Notes under the pieces: model-generated | The model's input: the letters and a program-made list of their open reading frames with translations, nothing else | What the model was told of the DNA's origin: nothing | Databases searched by the model: none | IMG/VR virus record: IMGVR_UViG_3300049783_001127 | Length of the DNA stretch: 64,000 nt | From: a virus | Reading direction: 5' to 3' (one strand) | In this document: in pieces, positions 1 through 63,472 of the stretch | Layout: every line of letters starts with the position of its first letter | How positions within the stretch are numbered: position 1 is the first letter of the stretch | Made by a program: the position numbers and the translations under genes

Positions 1-11
1 CCTATAAGGAG

Positions 12-4517: not shown

Positions 4518-4540
4518 AACTCTGAGTGCTACCTTAGGGC

Positions 4541-4760: not shown

Positions 4761-5045
4761 TTAACTATCAGTTTCATATTCTTTAGTTTTATTTTCAAAT
4801 GTGTTACAGTCCTTCTGTATTACAAACGCTGTGAATTCTTTACCCCAATCCTTTTCAGGTTGGTTATGAATGGCTTTAACAAGAGAACTATTAGCAAACC
4901 CCAAAGGGATTGCAGATTTTCCTGAGTACCATGCATACAGATCATCTGTGTATTGTCCTTTACATTTGCCACATTCACAAGATCTCTCTTCTGCTTGTAT
5001 TAAACGGACCACATCTTGGCAGGCTTTACATAGAATCAGTTTCAT
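4761..5045 (-). CDS. Small Cys-rich hypothetical protein
   Basis: 94-aa ORF with CKAC...CECGKC motifs (zinc-binding-like). Overlaps the start of the macrodomain gene by 20 nt. Confidence 0.5.
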   Translation of the reverse strand: MKLILCKACQDVVRLIQAEERSCECGKCKGQYTDDLYAWYSGKSAIPLGFANSSLVKAIHNQPEKDWGKEFTAFVIQKDCNTFENKTKEYETDS

Positions 5046-5511
5046 CTCTTAATACAGTTGATGGATCAAAGATTACTACAGTCACATCCATATCAACTAA
5101 TTCTGTATGGATTAACTTAGAGACAATAGACCAGCTTCCGCCACCTAGACCACAACCAATTTGTGGGAGGCCTATTGTTTTACCTCTATAACGCTTATTG
5201 AGTTTTCTAAAGCAAAGTGTTAGTGCTTCATAATCAAGAGGCTGAGGGCCTCCTGTATCATATTGAGTATAACAGTTAGCTACAAGTGTACCTTGTATAT
5301 TTCTAACATCAATCATACCCAATTTATTAACAGCTCCCTTATAGCGAGCTTCTTCAAGTGGAAATTTGTCTGCACCGAAGTGCCTAGCAAATAAAGGAGC
5401 TATGCCAGCTCCCATCACACAATGACAATTGCAGCCATGGGCAATCATATCAAACTCATTCTTTAGAGCAAGTTTGATAAGATCCCCTTTTACTTCCTTA
5501 TAACTACCCAA
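5026..5511 (-). CDS. Macrodomain protein, TARG1/OARD1/DarG-like (ADP-ribose hydrolase family)
   Basis: IAHGCNCHCVMGAGIAPLF and LPQIGCGLGGGSW blocks match the two glycine-rich signature loops of TARG1-type macrodomains (human TARG1: HCISEDCRMGAGIA / PRIGCGLDRLQW). Confidence 0.7.
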   Translation of the reverse strand: MGSYKEVKGDLIKLALKNEFDMIAHGCNCHCVMGAGIAPLFARHFGADKFPLEEARYKGAVNKLGMIDVRNIQGTLVANCYTQYDTGGPQPLDYEALTLCFRKLNKRYRGKTIGLPQIGCGLGGGSWSIVSKLIHTELVDMDVTVVIFDPSTVLRDETDSM

Positions 5512-5749
5512 CAGTAATTAATTTTTCAATGTTGCTGATTACTTTACCGTTGCTACTAGTAAGCGTATCAAGAGTACTCGTTTCAGCTTGGAGAGCCTTG
5601 ATCTTTTCTTCATTTTGCTCTTTGATAACTTCTGCTTCATTGTTAGCTTCTTTTAATTGAACAATTGCTTTATGGAACATCCCTAAAGCATCATTTGTTT
5701 TTTCAGCTGGAGTCTGTATAACCCCAATCATTCCTGTTTTTCCAAACAT
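5504..5749 (-). CDS. Hypothetical coiled-coil protein
   Basis: 81-aa ORF, E/K-rich heptad-like sequence. Confidence 0.45.
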   Translation of the reverse strand: MFGKTGMIGVIQTPAEKTNDALGMFHKAIVQLKEANNEAEVIKEQNEEKIKALQAETSTLDTLTSSNGKVISNIEKLITVG

Positions 5750-5772
5750 ACCCTGTTAGTTTTTAAGTGTGA

Positions 5773-7683
<1,911 letters not shown>

Positions 7684-7687
<4 letters not shown>

Positions 7688-7989
7688 TCTAATAATAGTT
7701 TAGTGTCTCCTGCACAGATATACAACTGTATGAGTTCCTGATCACAATCTAAACAAGTTTGTTTACTTTGCTTCAATGGTGCATCAAGTAAACTGTTATG
7801 TTCAAATCTTACATTTATCCCTGTAACATTTTCTGTCATAAACATAGGCAAGTAAATATTTTTATCACAACAAGTGCAAGCACCTTCTATAACAAACATT
7901 TCTCCCACTTGATCTATAACAGGGCAGAATAAAGGCGCCGGAAATGAGTTACTCATTGGTTTGATTTTTCCTACTGGTCTTCTAATCAT
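7684..7989 (-). CDS. Small zinc-ribbon-like protein (paralog of 7385..7687)
   Basis: CTCCDKNIY...CLDCDQ. 4-nt ATGA overlap with the neighbouring genes. Confidence 0.55.
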
Positions 7990-8201
7990 TACTCTACAAA
8001 TTTAGCATTTACTTTTAACATAAGCATCCTAAGTGCTGTATCTTTACAAGGAATACATGTACCATCAATAGGTCCACCTTTAATTGCAGTCTGACCACAT
8101 ATGGAACATTTATTAAATCTGCCTCCCCACATGAGTTGTTTTTCATGTTCAGTTGCTATTATTGCCATGGCTTTCCTTTGACTATCCTGCATAAAACTCA
8201 T
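7989..8201 (-). CDS. Small zinc-ribbon-like protein
   Basis: CSICGQ...CIPCKD. Ends KFVE* with a stop/start overlap. Confidence 0.55.
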   Translation of the reverse strand: MSFMQDSQRKAMAIIATEHEKQLMWGGRFNKCSICGQTAIKGGPIDGTCIPCKDTALRMLMLKVNAKFVE

Positions 8202-8395
8202 TCTACAAGTTTTGCTTTCTTCTGTGCTTTACAGAATTTTTTAAAGTTTTCATTACAATCATTACAGAATGGTCTTACATCATGACTCCGCACAGGCCAA
8301 TAATTATTATCACATCCTTCACAAGTAGGTAGTTGAGTATTATAAATTTTTAGGTTTGCACTAGCTAACTGTTTCCACAGACCATCCTTACTCAT
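8198..8395 (-). CDS. Small Cys-rich zinc-binding-like protein
   Basis: CEGCDNNYW...CNDCNENFKKFC. Ends KLVE* with an ATGA overlap. Confidence 0.55.
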   Translation of the reverse strand: MSKDGLWKQLASANLKIYNTQLPTCEGCDNNYWPVRSHDVRPFCNDCNENFKKFCKAQKKAKLVE

Positions 8396-8781
8396 GGTTT
8401 ATATGCTTTAGACATAACCTCATACATTAACATATATGATAACTGTAACACTAAGAACATTATGACACAGACCCACCATGCAAATCCAAACTCCATATCT
8501 AATAACATCACAATTCCTAATGTAAAACAACCGTGTGACAGAAAGTCAAACATGTTCCAAGCATCAGTTATAAATTTAAAAATTGATGTGGATCCTATAA
8601 AACTTGCTCCATTAGATTTTTTACCATTTTTATACATATTTCTCCAACTTTTTGAAGGGTTCCACCAATCTTCTTTTCTATTCTTGAAGATAGACTTTTT
8701 AAATCTAAAAGCTAGTGTATCACAAACAGATTTAAAAGCTGCAGCCACCAGCCATAATCCTACTATTAATACTATAATCAT
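8392..8781 (-). CDS. Integral membrane protein
   Basis: 129 aa. Hydrophobic N-terminal helix (IIVLIVGLWLVAAAF) and a C-terminal helical hairpin (FGFAWWVCVIMFLVLQL). Confidence 0.55.
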   Translation of the reverse strand: MIIVLIVGLWLVAAAFKSVCDTLAFRFKKSIFKNRKEDWWNPSKSWRNMYKNGKKSNGASFIGSTSIFKFITDAWNMFDFLSHGCFTLGIVMLLDMEFGFAWWVCVIMFLVLQLSYMLMYEVMSKAYKP

Positions 8782-8807
8782 TTTTTTATTTTAAGTGTTT
8801 ACATAAA

Positions 8808-8832
8808 GCAGGGGAGTATGACACTCCCCTTA
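8808..8832 (-). terminator. Hairpin, putative terminator downstream of 8838..10352
   Basis: GGGGAGT-atgacAC-TCCCC stem-loop. Confidence 0.4.
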
Positions 8833-8837
8833 CTCTA

Positions 8838-10352
8838 CTAAAATTCAAAGTTAGGCGACTCCAGTGTTGCTTTGTTTGAATCATTATCAAATTCTCCGTT
8901 TGGCTGTAATGTACCTTCAATAACTAAAGGTTCATCAACAACGGGTTCTTTACTTACTTCTTTCTCTGCTTCACTCACAGGTTGAACTTCAGACAATGCA
9001 ACTTGATCTTCTAAAGGAATAGCTTCTACTATGGGTGTTCCCAAAAGTTCCTCTGAATTCTGCTCTGCTGGGATGCCATCTGTTCCATTCTGTGATGGTC
9101 TCTTCTCATCTGATTCCTTCTCATCTGCTCCACTTGTGATTGAGCTCTCTTGTCTGTTCTCAAGGGTTGGATTGGCCGAGAGAAGATGTTCTTCCACGGT
9201 GCTAGTAACACTAAGAGGAGCTGGTTCAACAACCACTTCAGGTTCTTGGATGGCTTTGGTATCTTCAACTTCTTCTTGCTGACCTTCTGCTCCATCTTGC
9301 TTAGTTCCACTATATTCATCTTTTGCTGGATTAGTTGACATTGGTAAATCTTCAGGTGGAAGCGGAAACTCAGAAGGCTCATAGTTCTCTAATGAGAATA
9401 TAGGAGTCTCATCTACAGGTTCCGGAACTGAAACCTCTTCTGGCTCAGCTGCTTCTACTAAACTTTCAGCTTGAATGTTAACATTCTCTTTAACAGCATG
9501 TTTATAATCTGTTAAACTTAATATTTCAGGTTTTTCATTTAATTCAACAGTTTCAATAATCTCAGGCTCAGATTTTAATCCGTCATGATCATTAAGAGTT
9601 GAAATTGATGATTCAATCTGACTGATTATATTTGTTTGAGCTGGATCAGATAGAGGAGCTACTTGCACGTATTGATCTATCAAAAGCTTAGACACAGAGG
9701 TTTGTTGTTTAAACCATGCTTTAGGATGAGATGACTTAAATGTTTCAGCTACTGCTAACCACATATTCCAGACAGTGCTTGTTAGCATTATCTTATCAGC
9801 ATTCTTAATTATAATAAGCTGTGAGCTAGTAATAGCATCCTTGAAAAAGAATGTTCCCATCATCTTCTCATAGTCATCTCCACTTATGATAGATCTTTTC
9901 AATTTGTCACGTATAATAATAAAATCCTTATAGTTATTGAGGCCTTCATCAATTCTTTCATCTAAGTACTCAATAGTATGGTTTAACAAATCTGTACTAT
10001 TTCTTCTGAATGCTTTAGATTCAGTTTCAATAAATAGATCTGTACCACTAGCCATGTTGTAACCACCCATTTCACAACGGAAACCTGTTGTCTTATCATA
10101 CGAATTAATCCATGTAAGCATCATCCCATCCGCAATATCTGCAGTAGGATGATTCAGGTGCAATACACCTTGTACAATTTCTTTATTTACACTAATACGG
10201 TATTCTTCTACTCCTATTCCAAATCCTTTAGCAAGAAGTTGTGTAATAATAAGATCAGCTACCGTTTTATGTTCCAATATTCCTGAATTACCTGGCACAG
10301 GAATCATTTGCAACTGATTTCTATCAGCTGTAATATCAATATTCTTTGGCAT
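8838..10352 (-). CDS. Hypothetical protein with a long acidic, P/E/S-rich disordered C-terminal region
   Basis: 504 aa. A globular N-terminal ~300 aa is followed by a low-complexity acidic tail (PEPVDETP..., EE/PE repeats). Confidence 0.6.
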   Translation of the reverse strand: MPKNIDITADRNQLQMIPVPGNSGILEHKTVADLIITQLLAKGFGIGVEEYRISVNKEIVQGVLHLNHPTADIADGMMLTWINSYDKTTGFRCEMGGYNMASGTDLFIETESKAFRRNSTDLLNHTIEYLDERIDEGLNNYKDFIIIRDKLKRSIISGDDYEKMMGTFFFKDAITSSQLIIIKNADKIMLTSTVWNMWLAVAETFKSSHPKAWFKQQTSVSKLLIDQYVQVAPLSDPAQTNIISQIESSISTLNDHDGLKSEPEIIETVELNEKPEILSLTDYKHAVKENVNIQAESLVEAAEPEEVSVPEPVDETPIFSLENYEPSEFPLPPEDLPMSTNPAKDEYSGTKQDGAEGQQEEVEDTKAIQEPEVVVEPAPLSVTSTVEEHLLSANPTLENRQESSITSGADEKESDEKRPSQNGTDGIPAEQNSEELLGTPIVEAIPLEDQVALSEVQPVSEAEKEVSKEPVVDEPLVIEGTLQPNGEFDNDSNKATLESPNFEF

Positions 10353-40573: not shown

Positions 40574-40787
40574 AATATCTTACTTATTTGTTATTTTAGT
40601 TCATAAAAATGGGGATGTTATGCAAACAACACCCCCTACCTAACCACTTTTTAGAAAAGCTCATCCCACTTGTTATTTACACAGAACCACCTATGATTAA
40701 TAATTGAACAAGTGGAGAGATTACAGTTACACGCCAGAGGCGCCCTGTTATCTGCAATGTTATTTTACTCTTCTTAAGTAATGTCTA

Positions 40788-42867: not shown

Positions 42868-43080
42868 AAATTGTTATGTACAAGTTTCAGATGTAAAGAT
42901 AACTAAGATATCTAGTCTAAACTACTAGGTATACGTGAGTTACTTAAATATATATGAATATATAGCTATAATTGATGTTATTGACACACAGTTCTATTTA
43001 TAGGCCTAACTTGGCAAAAGTCTGTGTTCTCAATCTCATAGAGCTTGATTAGATTCTAATTAAAAATAGGGGAGCTATGA

Positions 43081-43135
43081 CACAAGTGCCAAATTAACCC
43101 CTTAATTGCTCCCCTATTAAGTCAACAGTTCCAAA
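43081..43135. repeat. 11-bp perfect inverted repeat with a 31-nt spacer (long hairpin)
   Basis: AATAGGGGAGC ... GCTCCCCTATT. The left arm shares GGGGAG-TATGACAC with the hairpin at 8811. Confidence 0.6.
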
Positions 43136-43141
43136 CTGCAA

Positions 43142-51156: not shown

Positions 51157-51870
51157 TTGTTTAGCTTTAAATTGTTAATAAGTATCTCATCTGATTGTTC
51201 ACAGGCTCCTTAGTCAAGGTCCTGATATGTTTATTTACACCGTTACCTCCATAGCAAGTATAGTCAGTTACTGGTTTTTGAGAGTCTTTACTGACTCATT
51301 CAATCAGATGAGAATAAAATACCTGTCCATTTCTAAGTAATGGATTACTATAACCCCTTGGACTCTAACCAAGAACCTCCCGAAAGTGTACTAATTGTAC
51401 CAGAGTTTGATAAGTATCTTACAATAAACAACGTCATCTTAGCATGACTGTGAAGTACTCAATCCCAGACATTCCCCGATTACTCAGTATGTTTCTGACT
51501 TCGTATCAATCACTGTTTATCTTCAGCAGGTAGTATTTTAATAAGTATGAATATGACTTAGATAGCGTAATCACCAGTCCCAATAGAGCTTGTTTCCTTC
51601 TCTGTCAGTTACACCAATTATCCACCATATCATATTCAATATCCTCCCTACAAGGTTGCACCTTGATTATCCACTAATGAAAGTGTTTCGTGCCTTACGC
51701 ACTTTGCCTGCAGTTGGATAGGGAAACCTTTGTCACAAGGTTTTAGTATTGTTAAATGCTATCTTAGTCTTTGGTTTTGTGTTTCTTCTTCCTAGTATAC
51801 TTAGTCTTATCCTTGTACACATTAGGCCTAGTAGCTTGGTTAATCTCTTCTTGAGTTACTACAATCTTCT

Positions 51871-52840: not shown

Positions 52841-52913
52841 AATTAGTTAGATTTATAGTTAATTTCAGTTGTTCCGGATACATTTATACTCTTCCTCATC
52901 TATAGAGAGAAGA

Positions 52914-53436: not shown

Positions 53437-53835
53437 GTTGTTTTATTTATAGGTTTCTAATAGTAAGTGTTAGTGAATAAAATAATAGTGTTCTCATAAG
53501 GTTGCACCTTTTAGATATGTCTTCTTTTAAGAGATTGCATAGTAAGTTACAAGTTTACAAGCATCTGATTCCCACCACGCCATTGGATAAGAACACTATT
53601 AGATGTCAGTTGGGACTTCCTGCTCAGCTGCAGCGTAAGATTATTCTACCCTGTTTGGAATTCTCTGACTTCCTGATTGTTTAGCTCCTTGTATTACAAC
53701 TAGGTAATATAATCAACAATGAAATTATAGCTGCAGATATTATAGGTACTAAAGGTGTGGCAACTAGATAACATATGTAATCTATTATTCCTAGTATAAC
53801 TATTATAGTTAAACACATTGTGAATGCTGTTTTTT

Positions 53836-54691: not shown

Positions 54692-54719
54692 ATTTAATTT
54701 TTAGTTATTCCGGATATCA

Positions 54720-55004
54720 TCATTCTACAATAGGACTAGACTCAACTAATCTTACTGATACCTTGTGTACCTTGAAATCAAATGGTGAGTAGTTACTGTC
54801 TGTAGCTAACCATGATTTAGGAAGGAAATGAAAGCATATTGTTGAAGGTGTTCTTTGATCATTAAATACTGTTGCATTGTGCAAGTGTGAAATGATACTA
54901 AACTTACCTTCTATCTTTCTATCAGCTTTATAGTAAATGTTTCTAGTCTTGTGTTTAATGACCCACATAAGGTTCAGGTTTTGATAGTTATGATTAGGAT
55001 ACAT
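54720..55004 (-). CDS. Hypothetical protein
   Basis: 94 aa, ends IVE* in an ATTGTAGAATGA overlap. Confidence 0.45.
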   Translation of the reverse strand: MYPNHNYQNLNLMWVIKHKTRNIYYKADRKIEGKFSIISHLHNATVFNDQRTPSTICFHFLPKSWLATDSNYSPFDFKVHKVSVRLVESSPIVE

Positions 55005-55076
55005 AGTTAAATTTAGTTATTCCGGATATATTTATACTAATCTTCATATAGAAGAAGAGACAAATAACATAGAGGT

Positions 55077-55322
55077 TTAATGCTTCTTCTTTGTACTTAT
55101 AACAGGACCTACTAGAAACTTTTTCATTGCCCTAATTCTATTCAGTGCTGCTTTGATTGTCTGCAACTTATGGTCAAGCTCTTCAACTACATGATCCATT
55201 GATCCATTTCTTTTAGCTGCATTTCTTCTAGCTGCATTTAAACGAGTATATGTTTCAGAGTGGTGATGAGATAGAGCAACAATAGTTGCATATATAATAT
55301 CACGGTCAGTAATAGGTCTCAT
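55077..55322 (-). CDS. Small basic hypothetical protein
   Basis: 81-aa ORF. Confidence 0.4.
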   Translation of the reverse strand: MRPITDRDIIYATIVALSHHHSETYTRLNAARRNAAKRNGSMDHVVEELDHKLQTIKAALNRIRAMKKFLVGPVISTKKKH

Positions 55323-55379
55323 AGTAAGTGAATTTTAGGTTTGCGGATGCCCATGTATTGATAAGAATACTATATAGGG

Positions 55380-55598
55380 TTAAGACAAGTAATGAAATAG
55401 GCCCCAAAGCATACATGTTATTATTGCGCTAATTAGAGTAGCCGTAAACCAAAATGGCTCTACGTTAGGTAGTAGTAAACCAATGAAGCCTTTAATGGTT
55501 ACATAGGTGCCAAATAAGCTCAGTGTTAATATTATACTTGTAATCATAATGTTAGTTTTTGAGTTTGCGGATACAAACATATTAGTAAAGAATACCAT
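55380..55598 (-). CDS. Small membrane protein
   Basis: 72 aa, two TM helices. Confidence 0.4.
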   Translation of the reverse strand: MVFFTNMFVSANSKTNIMITSIILTLSLFGTYVTIKGFIGLLLPNVEPFWFTATLISAIITCMLWGLFHYLS

Positions 55599-55603
55599 AG
55601 GGC

Positions 55604-55792
55604 TTATAACCCTTGATCTAGTATATTATTCTTTGAGCGCAATGTCTCTTTATAGAGGGCTAATGTCATGTGTATTGTCTTGTAGAGTGAGTACGTAAGT
55701 GTAGTGACTCCAAGAGCAATAGTTATATAGCCTATCATCATGAATGTAGTAATCATAGCTATATATTTATTAAGAGAGCATATATTAGTCAA
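55604..55792 (-). CDS. Small membrane protein
   Basis: 62 aa, hydrophobic. Confidence 0.35.
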   Translation of the reverse strand: MTNICSLNKYIAMITTFMMIGYITIALGVTTLTYSLYKTIHMTLALYKETLRSKNNILDQGL

Positions 55793-55983
55793 TGCTCAAA
55801 GGTTAAGGATTAGTAGGTATGTTGTCTCCCACTCAGTCACTTAAGCACACACAACTCAACAAAAACTTTAAGTTTTGCAGTGAATATTCAATTATTCTAC
55901 GGATAATGGGTGAGGTGAATGGTGAGGAGCATCTAAAAGAGCTACCACACCCCTATTACAGGATATGGTAGCATCATGACCTA

Positions 55984-56499
55984 CTATAAGCTTGCCTCAT
56001 CTTCAGAAACAGCATCCTCCACAATGTCTTCTACAGGAGCAGAAGCAGGAGCAGCACTGTTAAGAGATCCTCCACGCATAGCGTTGGCAATCTTGTGTTC
56101 AGCAATCTTCATTGCAATAACACCAAGCACTGCTGGATTAGTTTCTGTTTCCAACAAAGCTTCAAGACCAAGCATAGTTTCATCAGCCGTTTTAGGGATG
56201 ATAATACCGTCAACAATCTCAAGAGTGATCTTGTTAAGCTTGTGTTTGCTAGTAAACAATACTTTACCGTCTGCGTCTTCACGGTAATATTCATCTTTGA
56301 TGCGCTTGTATTCAGCAAGAGCTTCAGGGCTACCTGTTACAGTATATCTAAACCTTGGGCTTTTAGCACCAGTTTCAAGGTTAGTAGATTTGTAAGCTTC
56401 ACCAGTTCTGTAAGTTGCAACTAATTTCATAACATAAGGGGTATTAAGTAATGGGAATGCCACAATGACATTCTCTCCATTATAATAATGGGTAGTCAA
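55984..56499 (-). CDS. Hypothetical protein with an acidic C-terminus (the track start is a TTG codon)
   Basis: 171-aa ORF. First gene of the minus block next to the divergent region. Confidence 0.4.
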   Translation of the reverse strand: MTTHYYNGENVIVAFPLLNTPYVMKLVATYRTGEAYKSTNLETGAKSPRFRYTVTGSPEALAEYKRIKDEYYREDADGKVLFTSKHKLNKITLEIVDGIIIPKTADETMLGLEALLETETNPAVLGVIAMKIAEHKIANAMRGGSLNSAAPASAPVEDIVEDAVSEDEASL

Positions 56500-56506
56500 A
56501 GAGGGA
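56489..56506. repeat. Iteron-like 18-mer TGGGTAGTCAAAGAGGGA, copy 1
   Basis: Exact 18-mer repeated at 56631..56648. Shorter TGGGTAGTC(AA) copies at 57057 and 57307. Confidence 0.6.
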
Positions 56507-56630
56507 GCAGAACGGAAGGAGCAGTAACCAAGGATAGTAAAGCTAGTGCTTGCGGTAGCAACAGGCTGATTAAGCCTGAACGCTGAACTTGTTCAAGCTT
56601 TAATAGCATTGGTGAATGCGAGTGAAGTGA

Positions 56631-56648
56631 TGGGTAGTCAAAGAGGGA
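56631..56648. repeat. Iteron-like 18-mer TGGGTAGTCAAAGAGGGA, copy 2
   Basis: See copy 1. Confidence 0.6.
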
Positions 56649-56842
56649 AAAGATAACTATCTAATAACCAGTACTTGAGTCTACTTGTTACACACGCTGG
56701 ATACAATATATTAGCCTCCACCCACCAAAGGTACGAGATATATATTTAACAAGTGTCACATGATTGTCATAACACCTTGCATCAAGCTAATTTAGAATGA
56801 TTCTAAATAAGAAGGAGAGAGCCTAAGCCCTCCCCTCTTAGC

Positions 56843-57133
56843 TTAGTTACGAGACCTTGAAGCCTTGTAACATTCCCTGTCGGGTTGTACGTGTGAGAAT
56901 CTACTGAATGTCTTTTCAATAGCTTCCCATTTAGTTTCTGCTAATGTGCTCAATATTAATGGCACTCTTCTATTAGGTCTTCTAACAGTAACTACAAACT
57001 TGTATTTGTCATTATGCATATATCTTGGGTTTAAGGGGTTAATATTCCAATAAAGTAATGGGTAGTCAATCCAACCAATGAACTCCCTAGAATGGGAGCT
57101 CATCTTCATCAGTGGCAATACATACATGATCAT
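56843..57133 (-). CDS. Hypothetical protein (sits in a repeat-rich control region; may be spurious)
   Basis: 96-aa ORF. Confidence 0.3.
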   Translation of the reverse strand: MIMYVLPLMKMSSHSREFIGWIDYPLLYWNINPLNPRYMHNDKYKFVVTVRRPNRRVPLILSTLAETKWEAIEKTFSRFSHVQPDRECYKASRSRN

Positions 57134-57449
57134 TCAATCTAATAGTTACTAGTGTTCTTAGAGCAAGCTTGTAACCTCCATTACATTCAATGAACTCACA
57201 CGAGTCAAAGCTTCCGTTGTTTAGCAACTTGATACAGTCTCTTACAGTCTTCATAAACTTATTCATAACAATTGTTTTTATATTCCAGCACTGTATTGGG
57301 TAGTCTCTCTCACAATTAAGGGGGGTGGGACCAAAACTTTTTTTTCTTCAAGTTTTATTAGGGGGTGTCCACTACAGGTCCTAATACATCCCTAAAATCA
57401 AAGACTTAAATTTTTGGGTAGGAATTTTGGATGAAAAACCGTATATTAT

Positions 57450-59009
57450 ATGTATATAGAAATTAATATTTATAATATGAGAAATGATAGCATTAACTGG
57501 ACATGGCTTATAGAAACAGGCCGTATTCAGGAAGCAACAGCAGATGAAGATTATATATTAGTAGGATCTTTTGATACTACTAAGAAGACATCTAGTACTG
57601 CAAATAGAACAAGAGAGTACATGATTAAGGTTTCAGATTTCTTGGCAAACGTAGCCCCCGGAGCAGAAGCTTGGACATCTTTAACAGATACTCCTGGAAC
57701 TATTACAGCAGACCAAATGGTTGTTGGAAATGCTTTAGGTACTGGTTTAGAGTTTGCGCCAGTTCCTGTTACTGAAAACACTTGGGAAGTCCCTACAGTA
57801 GCATTTGTAAACCCTGATCCTGCGATTGGAAATGATGGTACAGCTGTAATTGGAGATGGAAATAAGCCGTATCGAACTATTGCAGCAGCACATGCAGCTT
57901 CTAATATAATATTCTTTCAGCCCTACAATAATTACACCGAAGCTTTTGCACCAGGTACAGGGAAAACGTACTTCTCTTATCCAGGCGTTATTTTCACTTC
58001 TGGAGGAATAAATAGTACAGGTGCCACTTTGGTAGGTACTAAATTCTTGGGCTATGCTAAATTCTTAGGGAATCAAAGATTAATATATTTAGACAATGCA
58101 ACTCTTACAGATGTTGTTATAGAATTTGACAGTGCTGAAACTACAGCTGGAGCAGGAAACGGATGTGTGAGAATTGACTGTGATAACCCTAGCACATTAA
58201 CTTTTAAATGTAATAGTCTTAAAGATATTTATAATGGAAATGCATTCGGAGCCTTATTTAAAGGTCCAATATCAGGAACATTAGATGTAGCGGATAGTAT
58301 TATAGGTTCTTATGGTGTTTTGGAATTAGGTTTCTCGGGAGAATACTTGAGGAATTTCACTGTTAATTGTCCTAGAATAGTTTGTCTTGATGGAGGGGCA
58401 GCAGGAAACAATGCATCGTTTAAACAGGCTATTAAATACGGAGGAACCGAAGCCGGATATAAAACCACAATAAATGGAAACATTTACCATGAAACAGTAG
58501 GGACTTTAGCTTCTGTATCAGGATGTGTTGTAGCTCAATATGCAGGAGGAGGTACATTAGAGATTAACGGAAGTATTGAAGGAGGGGACCAAAGAGGTAT
58601 TGTTAATTTTTCCACTGATAAAATTATCCTAAACGGTGGGGGCATTGAAACTGTCGCTGCTTCTTTCTTTGTTACTAATGGGGAGCTTGTAATTAAGGAT
58701 TCCACAATAGTCCAGGGAATAGCAAACAGTATAACTGGATCTCCGAAAGTATGGATTTATGGGTCTACTATCAACTCCACTACAACGGCAAACATAATTG
58801 ATCACTTGAGTGGGACATCTCAATTAGTAATTAGAGACACTGACGCTCAAGGAAGCACAGGAGAGTTTGTAAATACAGGTGGTGCTGCAAACAAAGTAGG
58901 GATGACAAATGTTGTATCTAACTTAGCAAATGACGTAAGTATGGGAAGTTTATACTCTGCGCTTGGGTTCACTCAAGACGATGCATTGGTAACACCTGAC
59001 TCAATTTAA
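57450..59009 (+). CDS. Beta-helix-type tail fibre/tailspike-like protein
   Basis: 519 aa, rich in G/N/T/S. Repetitive short beta-strand segments (NGGGIETVAASFFVTNGELVIKDSTIVQGIANSITGS...) typical of right-handed beta-helix receptor-binding proteins. Confidence 0.45.
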   Translation: MYIEINIYNMRNDSINWTWLIETGRIQEATADEDYILVGSFDTTKKTSSTANRTREYMIKVSDFLANVAPGAEAWTSLTDTPGTITADQMVVGNALGTGLEFAPVPVTENTWEVPTVAFVNPDPAIGNDGTAVIGDGNKPYRTIAAAHAASNIIFFQPYNNYTEAFAPGTGKTYFSYPGVIFTSGGINSTGATLVGTKFLGYAKFLGNQRLIYLDNATLTDVVIEFDSAETTAGAGNGCVRIDCDNPSTLTFKCNSLKDIYNGNAFGALFKGPISGTLDVADSIIGSYGVLELGFSGEYLRNFTVNCPRIVCLDGGAAGNNASFKQAIKYGGTEAGYKTTINGNIYHETVGTLASVSGCVVAQYAGGGTLEINGSIEGGDQRGIVNFSTDKIILNGGGIETVAASFFVTNGELVIKDSTIVQGIANSITGSPKVWIYGSTINSTTTANIIDHLSGTSQLVIRDTDAQGSTGEFVNTGGAANKVGMTNVVSNLANDVSMGSLYSALGFTQDDALVTPDSI

Positions 59010-59024
59010 ATTATTAATAACAAT

Positions 59025-59717
59025 ATGATGAAACTAAAAATTATGAGTAAAGCACTTTTAGTAATGTCTCTAGCAATGACATCATGCCAACAACAAAATA
59101 TTGAATCGCCTAACAAGAAAATTGTTATGTTAGGTGATTCAGGCATAAAACAAATAGACGGTCAGCTCTCAGGAGTTAATCAATCTTCTTGGAACGCTTT
59201 GATGGGTCATAACAATATGATCAACTTAGGTTTTAATGGATACGCAACAGCAAATATCATAAGCTATGGCAATCCTGCACCTTTGGCCTTGGCTATTGCA
59301 GAAGCCCCTGATCTATTATACTTAAGTATAGGTGGAAATGATGGTGCTGCAGGACAAGGTAGTGGTGTATCTTTAGCTACAACTATGGCTAATCTTGAAA
59401 ATATATGTAATCAAATAAAAGCTGCAAACATTCCATTTGTAATTGTTTCTGTTCTCCCTTTCACTAAGATAAGAAATGAAACCGCTGGTGGGGGTGTAGG
59501 GATATTCAATGACAACTTTCAAAACATGAATGATGCTATTATCCAGTTTTGCGCAGACAATGAATATGAATGCATGGATATACGCCCTTATGTTTGTTAT
59601 AGAGAAAATGGCTTATGGCACTTAAGAGACAGTCTCACTTTTGACGGAGTCCACTTAACTTTTGAAGGATATGAACAGTGGGCAATACCTCTAAGTTACA
59701 GTATTAACCAACATTAA
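59025..59717 (+). CDS. SGNH/GDSL-family hydrolase lipoprotein
   Basis: Signal plus lipobox (LAMTSC). Block I GDSGI, block III GGNDG, block V DGVHLT. Confidence 0.7.
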   Translation: MMKLKIMSKALLVMSLAMTSCQQQNIESPNKKIVMLGDSGIKQIDGQLSGVNQSSWNALMGHNNMINLGFNGYATANIISYGNPAPLALAIAEAPDLLYLSIGGNDGAAGQGSGVSLATTMANLENICNQIKAANIPFVIVSVLPFTKIRNETAGGGVGIFNDNFQNMNDAIIQFCADNEYECMDIRPYVCYRENGLWHLRDSLTFDGVHLTFEGYEQWAIPLSYSINQH

Positions 59718-59723
59718 ATAAAA

Positions 59724-59755
59724 AAGCCTTGGATCAGTTCTAAGGCTTTTTTTTA
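59724..59755 (+). terminator. Rho-independent terminator
   Basis: AGCCTT-ggatcagttct-AAGGCT followed by a T-run. Confidence 0.6.
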
Positions 59756-59776
59756 CTTTTACATAAAAACCAACAG

Positions 59777-60184
59777 ATGAAACATAAAGAAATTAAGTTG
59801 CTCCCGTCCCAATGGACAATGGATGTAGTAGAGTGTGCTAATGAAGACTATGAGAAGTTAGATGTCTGGATGTCTAAGAGGTATGGTATACCAATGTGTG
59901 AATTAGATGACGGCCATAATATTAACGCAGTCCATAGTATAGAGTCCTCACCTAAATCTCCACTTAAAGGTAGGAGGCTTATCTTGCTAGCACTCAATGA
60001 CTTAAATGATGATGGTGTATTAGTACATGAGTTGTTACACGTTCTGTGGCACCATGCTAAACATGTGGGTTACAATATGGACTATGAGTCACAAGAATGG
60101 CAGGCCATAATGATTGAGTACATATTCAATGAAGTTAAGGACAAAAAGGGTTGGAAGAGAGTTCCTGCAAAAGATATGAAGTAG
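59777..60184 (+). CDS. Small HExxH-motif protein (putative zinc metallopeptidase-like)
   Basis: LVHELLHVLWHH. Confidence 0.4.
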   Translation: MKHKEIKLLPSQWTMDVVECANEDYEKLDVWMSKRYGIPMCELDDGHNINAVHSIESSPKSPLKGRRLILLALNDLNDDGVLVHELLHVLWHHAKHVGYNMDYESQEWQAIMIEYIFNEVKDKKGWKRVPAKDMK

Positions 60185-60295
60185 TATCCGGCAATATTCT
60201 TTAAGGTATACATCTACCCTCTAGTTAAGTTATAAAGATTATCAGAACTTTGGAAGATTCATATTAAGTAACTAATTTAGCAAAAACTAATAGAT

Positions 60296-60571
60296 ATGAG
60301 CGTAAGATTTAAACCAATGGGAGATGGAGTTCTAATTGCTCCAGTTATCCCACCAAAAGAAACAATATCCCCAGCAGGGATTGTAACAACAGTAAATACA
60401 CCTGAGCTTCCTACAAGAGGTGATATAGTAATTACAGGAGAAGAAGTAAAATACACTACAAAAGGTGATACTGTCCTCTTCGGTATACATGCAGGTAAAG
60501 ATGTAGAAGTAGATGGAGTAGTTTACAAATTAATCAAAGAAGGAAATTTAGATGGATTTTTTCTAGATTAA
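60296..60571 (+). CDS. groS: GroES-like co-chaperonin (Cpn10/gp31-like)
   Basis: F-K-P-M-G-D-G-V-L-I start and the size (91 aa) match Cpn10; the mobile-loop region is proline-rich. Beta-barrel-type sequence. Confidence 0.55.
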   Translation: MSVRFKPMGDGVLIAPVIPPKETISPAGIVTTVNTPELPTRGDIVITGEEVKYTTKGDTVLFGIHAGKDVEVDGVVYKLIKEGNLDGFFLD

Positions 60572-60713
60572 ACTTGTTTATTAACAAATTAGTATTAATT
60601 TAGCAGCATGAATAACACACTATATAGCAGATGTCTCTCGTTATGGTTCCGCCCGGATCCTGAGATGACCATGCTATAACCTGTTTTTCACATTGTTTTT
60701 AAATTAGGTATTA

Positions 60714-60746
60714 AGCTCCAGGTCATTTGATCTGGGGCTTTTTTTA
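60714..60746 (+). terminator. Strong rho-independent terminator
   Basis: 11-bp stem AGCTCCAGGTC-attt-GATCTGGGGCT followed by TTTTTTT. Confidence 0.7.
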
Positions 60747-60747
60747 T

Positions 60748-60820
60748 GGAGGTATAGCAAAGATGGACTATGCGGGGGTTTGAAGAACCTTAGATCCAAG
60801 ATCGTTACTTGGTGCCTCCA
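60748..60820 (+). tRNA. tRNA-like element / probable pseudo-tRNA (73 nt, aberrant anticodon arm)
   Basis: Acceptor GGAGGTA/TGCCTCC and T-arm CCAAG-ATCGTTA-CTTGG are present, but the anticodon stem is poor. Confidence 0.3.
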
Positions 60821-60825
60821 CACAT

Positions 60826-60896
60826 GGGATGGATTATGGTGATAGCCGGGACTGTAAATCCCTAGCAGGTTGGTTCGAGTCCAGCGCATCCCACCA
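60826..60896 (+). tRNA. tRNA (anticodon read as GTA, Tyr?; atypical short form)
   Basis: T-arm GTTGG-TTCGAGT-CCAGC. Acceptor GGGATGG/GCATCCC, discriminator A plus an encoded CCA. D-arm irregular. Confidence 0.4.
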
Positions 60897-60901
60897 ATTA
60901 T

Positions 60902-60985
60902 AGAGGGCATCCGGCTGGATGAGGAGCTGATCTTGAAAATCAGTAGCACTGAAAGGTGTTTAGAGTTCGAGTCTCTAGCCCTCTA
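60902..60985 (+). tRNA. tRNA-Ser(TGA), class II
   Basis: Acceptor AGAGGGC/GCCCTCT, anticodon stem CTGAT/ATCAG with loop CTTGAAA, long variable arm, T-arm TAGAG-TTCGAGT-CTCTA. Confidence 0.65.
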
Positions 60986-60990
60986 CATAC

Positions 60991-61059
60991 GCGTCTCAGG
61001 CCGGGGTGGCCAAACGGATTCCAAACCCGTAGGGCAGAGTTCAACTCTTTGGGGGCGCG
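60991..61059 (+). tRNA. tRNA (anticodon read as CCA, Trp?)
   Basis: Acceptor GCGTCTC/GGGGCGC (two G-U pairs), anticodon loop TTCCAAA, T-arm CAGAG-TTCAACT-CTTTG. Confidence 0.4.
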
Positions 61060-61064
61060 CAAAT

Positions 61065-61135
61065 GGTACCATGAGTGAGTGGCTAACTGCCGGTCTGCAA
61101 AACCGGTTACGCTGGTTCAAATCCAGCTGGTACCT
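61065..61135 (+). tRNA. tRNA-Cys(GCA)
   Basis: Acceptor GGTACCA/TGGTACC, anticodon stem CCGGT/ACCGG with loop CTGCAAA, T-arm GCTGG-TTCAAAT-CCAGC. Confidence 0.7.
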
Positions 61136-61227
61136 CAAACAGAGAGAGAACCTACCTGGGTAGGCTGCCCCTGCTAAGGGCATGGGTGTGAAAGCACTGG
61201 GGATCAAGGCCTCCTCTCTCTACAAAT

Positions 61228-61309
61228 GCCTTTGTGGTGGAATTGGGAGACACAGCGGTCTTAGAAGCCGTGGCTGAAATGCATGAGAGTTCGAGTCTCT
61301 CCAGAGGTA
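61228..61309 (+). tRNA. tRNA-Leu(TAG), class II
   Basis: Acceptor GCCTTTG/CAGAGGT (G-U pairs), anticodon loop CTTAGAA, long variable arm, T-arm GAGAG-TTCGAGT-CTCTC. Confidence 0.5.
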
Positions 61310-61320
61310 CAATAACAAAT

Positions 61321-61393
61321 GCCCCCGTAGCTCAACTGCTAGAGCAACGCTCTTCTACAGCGTGGGTTAGAGGTTGGAATCCTCTCGGGGGTA
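61321..61393 (+). tRNA. tRNA-Arg(TCT)
   Basis: Acceptor GCCCCCG/CGGGGGT, D-stem GCTC/GAGC, anticodon stem ACGCT/AGCGT with loop CTTCTAC. Confidence 0.7.
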
Positions 61394-61401
61394 CTATACA
61401 A

Positions 61402-61474
61402 GGGGAAGTAGCTCAACAGCTAGAGCACTTGGCTACGAACTAAGAGGTTATGAGTTGGACTCTCATCTTTCCCT
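61402..61474 (+). tRNA. tRNA-Arg(ACG)
   Basis: Acceptor GGGGAAG/CTTTCCC, D-stem GCTC/GAGC, anticodon loop CTACGAA. Confidence 0.65.
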
Positions 61475-61479
61475 CTACT

Positions 61480-61563
61480 GCTCCAGTGGTGGAAATGGCT
61501 ATACACGACAGGCTTAAGACCTGTTGCCTTTAAGGATTGGGGGTTCGAATCCCTCCTGGAGTA
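61480..61563 (+). tRNA. tRNA-Leu(TAA), class II
   Basis: Acceptor GCTCCAG/CTGGAGT, anticodon stem ACAGG/CCTGT with loop CTTAAGA, long variable arm, T-arm GGGGG-TTCGAAT-CCCTC. Followed by a T-run. Confidence 0.65.
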
Positions 61564-61764
61564 CTTTTTTTAAAAATAATTGCTAATTAATTTGGTAGTT
61601 AAGAAACTATGCCTATATTTGCTTTAATAAACACTTAGAAACAGCATGTACAAGATACAACATATGGCGCCCGCAACGGCAATTACTAATCAGGTAGAAG
61701 GGAAAGATCCCAGCTGCCCGGAGAAGTCATATATGTAACTTAGTAACTACTAACTATACATTAA

Positions 61765-61793
61765 GCTCTCCGGGAAACCAGAGGGCTTTTTTT
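61765..61793 (+). terminator. Intrinsic terminator with a GNRA (GAAA) tetraloop inside the tRNA cluster
   Basis: GCTCTCCGG-gaaa-CCAGAGGGC followed by TTTTTTT. Confidence 0.6.
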
Positions 61794-61806
61794 ATGCCCG
61801 ATATAT

Positions 61807-61879
61807 CTAGATGTATATCAGTTGGTAGATGGCCTGCTTTGGGAGCAGGAGGCCGGGGGTTCGAGTCCCTCCATCTAGA
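61807..61879 (+). tRNA. tRNA-Pro(TGG)
   Basis: Acceptor CTAGATG/CATCTAG, anticodon stem CCTGC/GCAGG with loop TTTGGGA, T-loop TTCGAGT. Confidence 0.65.
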
Positions 61880-61893
61880 CTAAAAAATAACTA

Positions 61894-62054
61894 TGGATGA
61901 ATTAAGAGCAGAAATTGCAGAATTAGAAAGTACGTTAACAGGAGACATGTTTCAAGATATGGAGATAAAAGATAAAATCCATAATCTAAACATGAAACTA
62001 ACTGGGACAAAACCAACAGATAGTCACTTTGACTGTGTAGGATGTGGTAGTTAA
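61894..62054 (+). CDS. Small ORF (53 aa, MDELRAEIAELESTLTGDMFQDM...CVGCGS) inside the tRNA array
   Basis: ATG-started ORF filling the gap between tRNA-Pro and tRNA-Ala. Not in the track (under 60 aa). Confidence 0.3.
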
Positions 62055-62061
62055 AACAAAT

Positions 62062-62134
62062 GGGGAAGTAGCTCAAATGGATGAGCATCTGCCTTGCACG
62101 CAGAAGGATGAGGGTTCAACTCCCTTCTTCTCCA
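62062..62134 (+). tRNA. tRNA-Ala(TGC)
   Basis: Acceptor GGGGAAG/CTTCTCC, D-stem GCTC/GAGC, anticodon stem TCTGC/GCAGA with loop CTTGCAC, T-loop TTCAACT. Confidence 0.7.
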
Positions 62135-62167
62135 CAAATACAGACTTGGAAATCTGTATTATGCACA

Positions 62168-62240
62168 AGCGCGCTGTAGCTTAATGCTAAAGCATCTGCC
62201 TTCCAAGCAGAGGACGGAGTTGGATTCTCACGGTGCGCTC
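62168..62240 (+). tRNA. tRNA-Gly(TCC)-like (irregular T-stem; possibly degenerate)
   Basis: Anticodon stem TCTGC/GCAGA with loop CTTCCAA. The T-stem needs a bulged nucleotide. Confidence 0.4.
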
Positions 62241-62249
62241 AATTAATAT

Positions 62250-62325
62250 GGTCTATGGGGCTGCTTGGTGTGGCCACTCCCCTGTCACGGGAGATATCAG
62301 ATGGGTTCAAATCCCATATGGACCG
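62250..62325 (+). tRNA. tRNA-Asp(GTC)
   Basis: Acceptor GGTCTAT/ATGGACC, anticodon stem CTCCC/GGGAG with loop CTGTCAC, T-arm ATGGG-TTCAAAT-CCCAT. Confidence 0.65.
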
Positions 62326-62392
62326 CAGAGAGAGAGATGCAGGTAATCCTGCCCGACAGGTGGTGTAATTAACATACTCTCTATTAAATTAT

Positions 62393-62463
62393 GCCTCATA
62401 AGCTTTAAGGTGAAGCTCTTGACTGTTAATCAAAGGAAGGTGGCTCAATCCCATCATGAGGCG
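62393..62463 (+). tRNA. tRNA-Asn(GTT)
   Basis: Acceptor GCCTCAT/ATGAGGC, D-stem GCTT/AAGC, anticodon loop CTGTTAA. Confidence 0.55.
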
Positions 62464-62469
62464 CAAAAC

Positions 62470-62543
62470 AGGTGTATAGCTCAATTGGTTAGAGCACTTC
62501 GCTGATACCGAAGAGGTTATAGGTTCAATTCCTATTATACCTA
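62470..62543 (+). tRNA. tRNA-Ile(GAT)
   Basis: D-arm GCTC-AATTGGTT-AGAGC, anticodon stem CTTCG/CGAAG with loop CTGATAC, T-arm ATAGG-TTCAATT-CCTAT. Confidence 0.7.
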
Positions 62544-62554
62544 CAATATAAAAT

Positions 62555-62628
62555 AGGAGTATAGCTCAGGGGTTTAGAGCACTTCCCTTACAAGGAATAG
62601 GTCCGGGGTTCAAATCCCTGTACTCCTA
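62555..62628 (+). tRNA. tRNA-Val(TAC)
   Basis: Acceptor AGGAGTA/TACTCCT, D-stem GCTC/GAGC, anticodon loop CTTACAA, T-arm CGGGG-TTCAAAT-CCCTG. Confidence 0.6.
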
Positions 62629-62677
62629 CAGAAGAAAAAAGTATTATGAAAAAGAAGATAAAGATATTGAAACACTT

Positions 62678-62750
62678 AGTCCCCTAGCTCAACGGTTAGA
62701 GCATCACTCTTATAAGGTGAAGGTTATCAGTTCAATTCTGATGGGGGCTA
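62678..62750 (+). tRNA. tRNA with anticodon TAT (Ile-UAU type, AUA decoder)
   Basis: Acceptor AGTCCCC/GGGGGCT, D-stem GCTC/GAGC, anticodon stem TCACT/GGTGA with loop CTTATAA. Confidence 0.55.
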
Positions 62751-62759
62751 CAACAACAA

Positions 62760-62831
62760 GCCCCCTTAGCTCAATGGCGGAGCCACCGGCTTTTAACCGG
62801 TAGGACATTGGATCAGTACCAATAGGGGGTA
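62760..62831 (+). tRNA. tRNA-Lys(TTT)
   Basis: Acceptor GCCCCCT/AGGGGGT, anticodon stem ACCGG/CCGGT with loop CTTTTAA, T-stem ATTGG/CCAAT. Confidence 0.65.
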
Positions 62832-62842
62832 CAAAAATATAT

Positions 62843-62916
62843 AGCGGGATGGGAAGTAATTGGTAACTCCTTGGTCTCATAAGCCAACGTTCCGGGTTCA
62901 AGTCCCGGTTCCGCTA
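62843..62916 (+). tRNA. tRNA-Met(CAT) (Met/fMet/Ile2 type undetermined)
   Basis: Acceptor AGCGGGA/TTCCGCT, anticodon stem TTGGT/GCCAA with loop CTCATAA, T-arm CCGGG-TTCAAGT-CCCGG. Confidence 0.6.
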
Positions 62917-62990
62917 CCAACTAGTAAAGTTAAACACAATGAGAGTAGATTCAGACATATCAGAAGTAGAAGAAGGAGAAGAGACAATAT

Positions 62991-63063
62991 GCTCCGTTCT
63001 TCTAACTGGTCAGGAAACCACACTTTCAATGTGGCAACACGGGTTCGAGCCCCGTACGGAGTA
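62991..63063 (+). tRNA. tRNA-Glu(TTC)
   Basis: Acceptor GCTCCGT/ACGGAGT, anticodon stem CCACA/TGTGG with loop CTTTCAA, T-arm ACGGG-TTCGAGC-CCCGT. Confidence 0.65.
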
Positions 63064-63110
63064 CCATCAGAGTACGCTACATCTGTTCTAGGTGTAGCAC
63101 CACAATTCAA

Positions 63111-63183
63111 GCTTCTAAAACATTTAATGGATGATGTCTGCTCTTGTAAAGCAGGGAACTAGGTTCGATTCCTAGTGGGAGCT
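63111..63183 (+). tRNA. tRNA-Thr(TGT)
   Basis: Acceptor GCTTCTA/TGGGAGC (G-U pairs), anticodon stem CTGCT/AGCAG with loop CTTGTAA, T-arm CTAGG-TTCGATT-CCTAG. Confidence 0.55.
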
Positions 63184-63191
63184 CTATATCT

Positions 63192-63266
63192 TGCCCGGTA
63201 GACAAAGTAGGCAAAGTCACCACACTTTGAATGTGGAATTTGTAGGTTCGAGGCCTGCCCGGGCAA
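63192..63266 (+). tRNA. tRNA-Gln(TTG)
   Basis: Acceptor TGCCCGG/CCGGGCA, anticodon stem CCACA/TGTGG with loop CTTTGAA, T-loop TTCGAGG. Confidence 0.6.
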
Positions 63267-63268
63267 CT

Positions 63269-63338
63269 GTGTTATTAGCTTATTGGTAAAGTGCTAGACT
63301 GTGAATCTAGAGAAGAGGGTTCGATTCCCCATAACACC
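63269..63338 (+). tRNA. tRNA-His(GTG)
   Basis: Acceptor GTGTTAT/ATAACAC, anticodon stem CTAGA/TCTAG with loop CTGTGAA, T-loop TTCGATT. Confidence 0.55.
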
Positions 63339-63472
63339 CCATTTAATTTGTTAGTCTTAAAGTTTTTCGCTATATTATAGTATGATAGTATTTGTAGGAG
63401 TAGGTATTGTATTAATTGCTTGCTACCACATAAAAAACTATTTTACAAAAGACTAGATTAAAACATAAATAT

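Follow-up and report, generated by a model that had tools for sequence, protein, structure and literature searches.

The window analyzed here is the whole 64,000-nucleotide (nt) stretch of the viral IMG/VR record IMGVR_UViG_3300049783_001127. It has a G+C content of 34 % and encodes GroEL, GroES, PolB, a primase, and a helicase; from ~4.6 kb to 57.3 kb all genes lie on the minus strand, and where this leftward block meets a divergent intergenic region, a short sequence is repeated among small genes. A first-pass annotation had drawn attention to this repeat, described as an 18-mer with truncated copies within a poorly coding stretch of roughly 1 kb, and had offered two explanations, iterons of a replication origin or an operator array of a transcriptional switch. 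Calling the stretch poorly coding was partly right, yet it holds two small minus-strand genes of 59 and 58 amino acids (aa), a structured RNA, and a conserved divergent region. Our analyses indicate that the repeat is the upstream half of a 23-nt minus-strand element and that this element is probably a family of immediate-early promoters.

Copies of the Repeat in the Window and Its Relatives

The 18-mer TGGGTAGTCAAAGAGGGA is found exactly where it had been reported, on the plus strand at 56489-56506 and 56631-56648, and no third match exists in the 64 kb even when three mismatches are allowed (chance expectation 0.02). Its 9-mer core TGGGTAGTC has exact copies at 56489, 56631, 57059, and 57297, all on the plus strand and together spanning 817 bp, and none elsewhere in the window; with one mismatch, the matches are at chance level (12 found in total vs. 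8.8 expected). The truncated copies are thus real, the exact core being present at both, although their positions need correction, from 57057 to 57059 and from 57307 to 57297. The copy at 57059 has 11 bases, TGGGTAGTCAA, in common with the 18-mer, or 12 counting the A just 5′ of them, and the copy at 57297 has only the 9-mer. Because the surrounding genes are on the minus strand, we read the repeat as its reverse complement GACTACCCA, which in the two 18-mer copies is preceded by CCCTCTTT.

A weight matrix trained on related contigs only, with the window's own copies left out, gives these four sites scores of 27-34 bits in a scan of both strands of the 64 kb, and everything else scores at most 8 bits; the element is also absent from L135, a 16-kb adjoining contig. 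The claim that the functional-looking repeats are limited to the divergent junction was therefore confirmed, and the search for copies scattered through coding regions, which would have suggested a simple dispersed repeat, found none. The copies are separated by 142, 428, and 238 nt, every interval holds a gene or an RNA gene, and the start codons that follow are 40-68 nt from the element.

Outside the window, the DNA of the region matched none of 50,697 phage records, an exact 17-mer scan of IMG/VR gave only three chance matches within one gene of a 46 %-GC phage, and a literature search for the literal motif returned unrelated primers only. Looking for related loci via the 148-aa, 519-aa, and 230-aa neighbors in IMG/VR produced nothing useful, the context of L001 being unrelated, and L002-L004 are the same phage at ≥99.9 % identity and add no information. 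Homologues of the 148-aa protein (52-76 % identical), on the other hand, led to contigs L005-L012. Two spaced 11-mers, used to scan metagenomes, picked out 39 loci, of which only L022 and L029, the latter from TARA Oceans, are relatives; the remaining 37 are unrelated tandem repeats. Dense direct repeats of TTGACTACCCAT / ATCTACCCAT, 11-32 nt apart and followed by inverted AAATGGGTAGTT copies, were seen in soil metagenome contigs (L028, L031, L043, L045, L046, L048, and L050-L054); these elements are unrelated to the phage, the arrays have the look of true iteron arrays, and the 11-mer is common to them and the phage by chance.

GACTACCCA is present in every relative, in 1-11 copies (11 in L029) and always on the gene strand, and it is kept despite the divergence of the neighboring 148-aa protein. 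Copy number follows the number of small open reading frames (ORFs), and the spacing, ~140-730 nt in the relatives, equals the length of the gene in between. The genes themselves are exchanged in a mosaic fashion. Contigs L006-L011 all encode the same 149-aa protein, and for more than 1.5 kb downstream their identity is 98-99.9 %; on the upstream side, their sets of small ORFs differ, and the blocks of homology start at an element or end ~30-45 nt past one. In L011 and L012, a junction falls within the element. Between the window and the relatives, three units are conserved and nothing else: the divergent region with copy 4, a hairpin with copy 3, and the block comprising copy 2, the RNA, copy 1, and the 148-aa gene. 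From these patterns we infer that recombination also takes place at the repeated terminator/promoter boundaries and shuffles the early ORFans. In L012 (69-101), a variant, GACAACCCA, is found in two fused copies (CCCTCTTTGACAAC-ATCCCTCTTTGACAACCCA) and the structured RNA is gone, which suggests that recombination of copy 2 with copy 1 deleted it.

Consensus and Placement of the Element

The consensus and weight matrix, built from 38 nonredundant instances, read GACTACCCA-w-TAyTrT-AnTk-GAA (GACTACCCAwTAyTrTAnTkGAA). The nine positions G1 A2 C3 T4 A5 C6 C7 C8 A9 are invariant save for one T4A variant (T4 37/38) and are followed by w at position 10, T11 (28/38), A12 (38/38), y13, T14 (33/38), r15, and T16 (33/38), then by A17 (27/38), n18, T19 (27/38), and k20, and finally by G21 (34/38), A22 (32/38), and A23 (28/38). 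T11, A12, and T16 form a TAnnnT that resembles a -10 hexamer, with its A invariant, and the conserved purines 5-7 nt farther on, G21-A23, probably mark the place of the transcription start.

The element keeps strict company with genes. Across the window and the 10 related loci, all 61 copies are on the gene strand (61/61). We surveyed start codons for 46 distinct instances, considering ATG-initiated ORFs of at least 40 aa: the ATG falls at element position 40-42 in 20 of them and at 32-72 in 13 more, and 10 have no ORF within 125 nt. On the upstream side, the terminators detected by a scan of L029 end 8-15 nt ahead of the element; the 45 nt upstream of the instances have a mean fold of -12.5 kcal/mol, vs. 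-5.7 for random 45-mers, and 30/46 of them fold at -8 kcal/mol or lower, vs. 23.5 % of the controls. A Shine-Dalgarno sequence was found before none of the minus-strand genes (0/94), and the leader after the element is a short A-rich stretch typical of this phage.

Three other views of the sequence were considered, the last two of which were dropped. The consensus is partly palindromic about a 3-nt center (C7-G21, A9-T19, T11-A17, A12-T16), as a hairpin promoter of the N4 kind might be, but the variable positions do not covary: pair 10-18 is Watson-Crick in 10 of 35 cases vs. 9.5 expected, and both 10-18 and 11-17 pair at chance level. An alignment in T7 register, GACTCACTATAG vs. GACTACCCAnnA, was abandoned because the conserved block proved to reach position 23. 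Finally, TTGACT was not retained as a -35 element because class A copies have no TTG there and because its distance from any -10-like box does not suit such an element.

Organization of the Cassettes

The features of the junction and of its surroundings are listed in Table 1. Among the promoter-like elements of the leftward unit, copy 4 comes first; ahead of it, the divergent region contains an invariant CCTACCCAAAA (minus strand, ~57410-57420), possibly a degenerate fifth copy, and a poly-C/G block (C-run) adjoining copy 4. Gene A, downstream of copy 4, has no homologue in the relatives, and the hairpin at its end is kept in L006, L007, L009, L011, and L029. For gene B, a mechanically listed ORF of 96 aa was rejected; it would contain copy 3, and the homologues support the shorter form given in the table. 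The conserved 148-aa protein combines a beta-rich domain at the N terminus with two helices and an acidic, disordered C-terminal tail; it has no PHROG, Pfam, or PDB sequence match, and its AlphaFold model (pLDDT 73) gave no fold match (best Foldseek E 0.05, TM <0.3).

Table 1. Annotated features at the divergent junction and elsewhere in the window, ordered leftward along the window
Feature	Position	Strand	Remarks
20 tRNA genes	60748-63341	+	
GroES	60296-60571	+	
Divergent intergenic region	57306-57449		79 % column identity with relatives, above the flanking ORFs
Copy 4, GACTACCCAATACAGTGCTGGAA	57283-57305	-	31.3 bits; ATG of the 59-aa gene at position 40 (57266)
Small ORFan gene A, 59 aa	57087-57266	-	Downstream of copy 4
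Hairpin GAGCTCCC-ATTCTA-GGGAGTTC	57080-57101	-	At the end of gene A; copy 3 follows directly
Copy 3, GACTACCCATTACTTTATTGGAA	57045-57067	-	33.9 bits; ATG of gene B at position 49
Small gene B, 58 aa	56843-57019	-	Start at 57019; L022 and L029 homologues align from residue 1
Terminator-like hairpin with T-run	56812-56837	-	After gene B
Copy 2, CCCTCTTT-GACTACCCATCACTTCACTCGCA	56617-56648	-	27.4 bits; holds the 18-mer; element start 56639; structured RNA next
Structured RNA, ~100 nt	56515-56619	-	Closing stem and three hairpins
Copy 1, CCCTCTTT-GACTACCCATTATTATAATGGAG	56475-56506	-	33.1 bits; holds the 18-mer; element start 56497; ATG of the 148-aa gene at position 68
Conserved 148-aa gene	55984-56430	-	First core gene of the leftward block
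Terminator-like hairpin, strong	55941-55972		After the 148-aa gene
GroEL	5773-7401	-	

Copies 2 and 1 enclose an interval that is conserved in the window, L005, L006/7/9/11, and L022/L029. The 37-aa ORF within it was not taken to be a gene because conservation does not extend to its start and RNA structure accounts for the similarity. RNAalifold applied to four distinct sequences predicts a long closing stem and three hairpins, with 33 pairs, 9 of them with compensatory changes. On this structure 93.8 % of the cells pair, vs. 29-47 % with the partners slid by 1-3 columns, and the observed covariation was reached in none of 500 shuffles (0/500). The first helix starts at element position 21, which fits an RNA 5′ end there. 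The RNA has no Rfam family, a scan of 55000-60800 giving nothing credible, and a covariance model detects a single copy in each genome, with no extra copy in the window and none in L135 or the left end of phage phi14:2. As no terminator lies between the structured RNA and copy 1, the RNA could also serve as a structured leader in a longer transcript that includes the 148-aa gene.

Some further sequences upstream of minus-strand genes were observed. ACCCCTTAA occurs on the gene strand at 45904, 46088, 49934, and 57031 (0.58 expected for the two strands together); in every case an ATG follows 10-20 nt downstream, and the sequence may be a leader or translation-initiation signal in a phage lacking Shine-Dalgarno sequences. 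A second upstream element, ATCCGGAAyAACT, is exact at 52867-52879, 54703-54715, and 55015-55027 on the minus strand, 10-38 nt before an ATG; two of the three copies have GTATAAAT(A/G)T ahead, and a start-like block, GGAAyA, is common to this element and the main one. It may be a second promoter class. Long stretches without ORFs are found within the minus-strand early/replication block at 51157-51870, 53437-53680, 42868-43141, and 40574-40787; in phi14:2, highly expressed early noncoding RNAs come from comparable gaps (10.1101/2020.03.07.982082).

Comparison with Host-Type Promoters

The middle/late promoters P070 and P075 of phi14:2, read from its genome, consist of TTG, 20 nt, and TAnnTTTG. 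As a positive control, the pattern TTG-N18-21-TAnnTTTG recovers these two and two further promoters of the phi14:2 structural block; it matches nothing in the early region of phi14:2, nor anything on the sense strand of the cassettes, be it in the window or in the relatives. Elsewhere in the window, plausible intergenic matches to TTG-N19-TAnnTTTG are present at 61592-61621 (+), within the tRNA array, and at 12895-12866 (-), before the gene upstream of the DNA polymerase.

The element itself conforms neither to an Escherichia coli-type sigma-70 promoter (TTGACA, 17 ± 1 nt, TATAAT) nor to a Bacteroidota sigma-A promoter (-33 TTG / -7 TAnnTTTG). About half of the copies lack TTGACT, and where it is present only 6 nt separate its end from the TAnnnT; a sigma-70 scan at 16-18 nt spacing picks up poor hexamers (GAGAAT, AATATT, 9/12) at the same rate as in shuffled sequence. 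Positions 14-21 (TrTAnTkG) form a partial -7-like box, matching ~3.7 of the 6 specified bases of TAnnTTTG; where an upstream TTG is present, it is 16-17 nt before this box, vs. 20 nt in P070 and P075, and thus 3 nt too close. The nine invariant bases, in turn, sit where host promoters have an unconserved spacer.

Identity of the Phage and Its Polymerase

The phage GroEL is 71-74 % identical to proteins of Flavobacteriales metagenome-assembled genomes (Cryomorphaceae, Crocinitomicaceae, Fluviicola, Taishania), and all but about two of its best 80 genome matches are labeled Bacteroidota. This similarity points to a host within the Flavobacteriales (Cryomorphaceae/Crocinitomicaceae).

The window starts within a giant gene: ORF 12-4517 encodes the C-terminal 1501 aa of a 2012-aa protein, for which no family or PDB match was found, and the window contains no DFDxD motif. 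That motif is met only in the adjoining L135 (contig Ga0589574_000037), which is 99.4 % identical over window positions 1-4824 and carries, at 1-9998 and directly upstream of the window's first gene, a gene for a 3785-aa protein with the sequence SGSDFDIDK. The alignment of this protein with gp66, the catalytic virion RNA polymerase of Cellulophaga phage phi14:2, comprises three collinear blocks (phmmer E 2e-24), and identity is 42 % in the 59 residues that surround the catalytic motif. In size the protein nearly equals phi14:2 gp67 and gp66 combined, which suggests a gp67-gp66 fusion, and the 2012-aa protein occupies the place of the polymerase-associated gp65 in phi14:2. Given the gp66-type polymerase, the GroEL/PolB content, and the kinship of GroEL, we assign the window to a crAss-like phage of marine Flavobacteriales; judging from the two contigs, its genome would be ~130 kb.

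In the sequence available, which covers all but ~50 kb of the genome and does not include the structural module, the ~30 larger of the ~100 window ORFs and the two giants of L135 gave no RNA polymerase match in PHROGs/Pfam, and no ORF of T7-polymerase size had one. The length of the element, 23 nt, agrees with that of the contiguous ~23-nt consensus of T7-type promoters.

A Probable Family of Immediate-Early Promoters

As immediate-early promoters, the elements would fire leftward from the divergent junction. A cassette would then consist of the terminator hairpin of the previous unit, the 23-nt promoter, an A-rich leader of ~20 nt without a Shine-Dalgarno sequence, and a small ORF; in one cassette, a structured RNA driven by copy 2 would take the place of the ORF. 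The most likely reader of the promoters is an injected polymerase, as the element misfits the host geometry and a gp66-type enzyme is present. Even so, we propose only tentatively, at somewhat under even chances, that the two-barrel virion RNA polymerase (vRNAP) carried into the cell reads the element and that the host sigma-A holoenzyme does not, and it is with the same reserve that we regard the element as the promoter of a gp66-type polymerase, which would make it the first sequence-defined promoter of this class. The enzyme could recognize the strand-specific, invariant 9-mer on a single DNA strand, which would agree with its preference for single-stranded templates in vitro.

Several points weigh against this assignment. 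Promoter activity and start site are deduced from sequence alone, in an uncultured phage, and the TAnnnT, the TTGAC in half of the copies, and the partial -7 box at positions 14-21 may point to the host polymerase, perhaps with an unusual geometry or an alternative sigma factor. The motif is limited to the first 0.8 kb of a 52-kb leftward block, and the replication genes lack it though they are vRNAP dependent in phi14:2. The vRNAP gene is on the 99.4 %-identical contig, not within the window itself. No common upstream motif was detected for the early gp66 transcripts of phi14:2 (10.1101/2020.03.07.982082), and we found no comparable repeat in its early region, so the strong consensus seen here is not predicted by the only characterized relative.

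The host RNA polymerase, using sigma-A or an alternative sigma factor, is a less likely reader, yet one to be taken seriously. Under this explanation TAyTrT at positions 11-16 would be the -10. The invariant GACTACCCA would lie near -22 to -14 and be either a spacer or extended element peculiar to the phage or the operator of a phage or host protein that later turns the early cassettes off, or on, in concert; this is in effect the operator-array idea of the first-pass annotation joined to a promoter. That idea came closer than the iterons since the repeats do look like transcription signals; what did not hold up is an array acting on a single switch promoter, each copy having a -10-like TAnnnT and a purine start region attached and resembling a promoter core of its own. 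Agreement of T11, A12, and T16 with two or three key -10 bases, the purines 5-7 nt later, the TTGACT in half of the copies, and the similarity of positions 14-21 to TAnnTTTG all suit a host enzyme, as do the hairpin and T-run terminators flanking the cassettes, which fit a bacterial polymerase. The early genes of most phages use the host polymerase (PMC4496689), and in T4-like phages the PeSL (promoter-early stem-loop) cassettes contain promoters for the host sigma-70 (PMC2839356). Neither known promoter type, however, has the geometry of the element, in which the TTGACT is too near the TAnnnT and the upstream TTG, where present, too near the -7-like box when measured against P070 and P075. 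Class A copies read GAGACT, TAGACT, or AAGACT, and it is thus GACTACCCA that is conserved and not a -35 hexamer. An invariant spacer of nine bases would match no known contact of sigma-A, and the lineage has an injected polymerase that does this job in phi14:2.

The remaining explanations do without a promoter in each copy. An RNA-level motif in 5′ leaders, such as a processing or translational-regulator site served by one promoter in the divergent region, would account for the distance to the ATG being fixed at 40-42 nt in many copies, for the unusual conservation of the divergent region upstream of the first copy, and for the first helix of the structured RNA starting just past the motif, as with a 5′ end made by cleavage. 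We nevertheless regard it as improbable: terminator-like hairpins and T-runs ahead of the copies, as close as 8-15 nt in L029, would block read-through from a single promoter, the ATG distance ranges from 32 to 72 in other copies, the TAnnnT with its purine pattern is a DNA-level promoter signature, and copy 2 precedes a noncoding RNA, where a translational role does not apply. Iterons at the strand-switch point are more improbable still, to the degree that we give them hardly any weight. The direct repeats are indeed limited to the divergent junction, cumulative GC skew has its minimum near 52-56 kb, and an AT-rich stretch lies at 57420-57480, but nothing ties that stretch to the repeats and the skew minimum merely follows the change of coding strand. 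True iterons are ~17-22 bp long, tightly clustered, and helically phased, whereas the spacing of these copies is long, irregular, and filled with genes, and their number varies with that of the small ORFs. The origin reading of the first-pass annotation fails on this spacing as well as on the strict gene-sense orientation of all copies and their set position relative to start codons and terminators; the neighboring genes, moreover, have no replication-initiator match.

As immediate-early promoters of either kind, the elements would be of wider interest because crAss-like phages rank with the most abundant viruses of Bacteroidota. The lineage provides a short, nearly invariant candidate signal, found 4-11 times in a genome and with natural variants, that can be tested against the polymerase domain and the host holoenzyme, and the locus adds a new structured early RNA. 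It also presents terminator/promoter boundaries as exchange points for small early genes outside T4-like phages. Should the host polymerase read the element, it would be an ordinary, though unusually built, early promoter family.

Comparison with Known Systems

The proposed function is of a known kind, phage early promoters arranged as promoter/terminator cassettes, and it is the strong early consensus that differs from the programme of phi14:2. There, the injected gp66 makes the early transcripts despite rifampicin (10.1101/2020.03.07.982082; reviewed in PMC10136315), and the host polymerase serves the middle and late genes via -35-like and -10-like blocks (10.1101/2020.03.07.982082); the 2023 review of the crAss-like order does not use the word promoter (PMC10136315). 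Both phages encode GroEL, PolB, and a giant homologue of the virion RNA polymerase in which DFDID is present, and both have a Flavobacteriia host, an early region without the host-type TTG-N20-TAnnTTTG, and noncoding RNA genes near the start of the early block. They differ in that no common motif was detected upstream of the phi14:2 early transcripts, in contrast to the 23-nt consensus invariant at nine positions described here, and in the polymerase, gp66 being a protein of 2180 aa and its counterpart here embedded in one of 3785 aa.

Coliphage N4 (PMC4496689) resembles our phage in having a few copies of an element, unrelated to host promoters, clustered at the genome end expressed first, and the partial palindrome around a 3-nt center is a further likeness. 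The promoters of N4, however, are hairpins with a stem of 5-7 bp and a 3-nt loop in which variable stem positions stay complementary, unlike pair 10-18 here, and its polymerase is a T7-like single-subunit enzyme, not a two-barrel one. In the halovirus HF2, intergenic sequences first seen as repeats turned out to be promoters (PMC8707807), in an archaeal virus with archaeal promoter logic and no sequence relation to the element.

The closest likeness in organization is to the PeSL units (PMC2839356, PMC4122927), in which a terminator hairpin and an early promoter are repeated between small ORFans of a hypervariable early region. There, too, homology between genomes is kept at the units, and the ORFs between them are swapped, inserted, or deleted. 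PeSL, however, have canonical sigma-70 -35/-10 boxes and an AT-rich upstream region, whereas in the present element GACTACCCA is fused to TAnnnT without canonical -35/-10 or -33/-7 geometry, and they belong to T4-like phages, not to a crAss-like phage of another host phylum. The element is thus an analogue of PeSL and not a member of that family.

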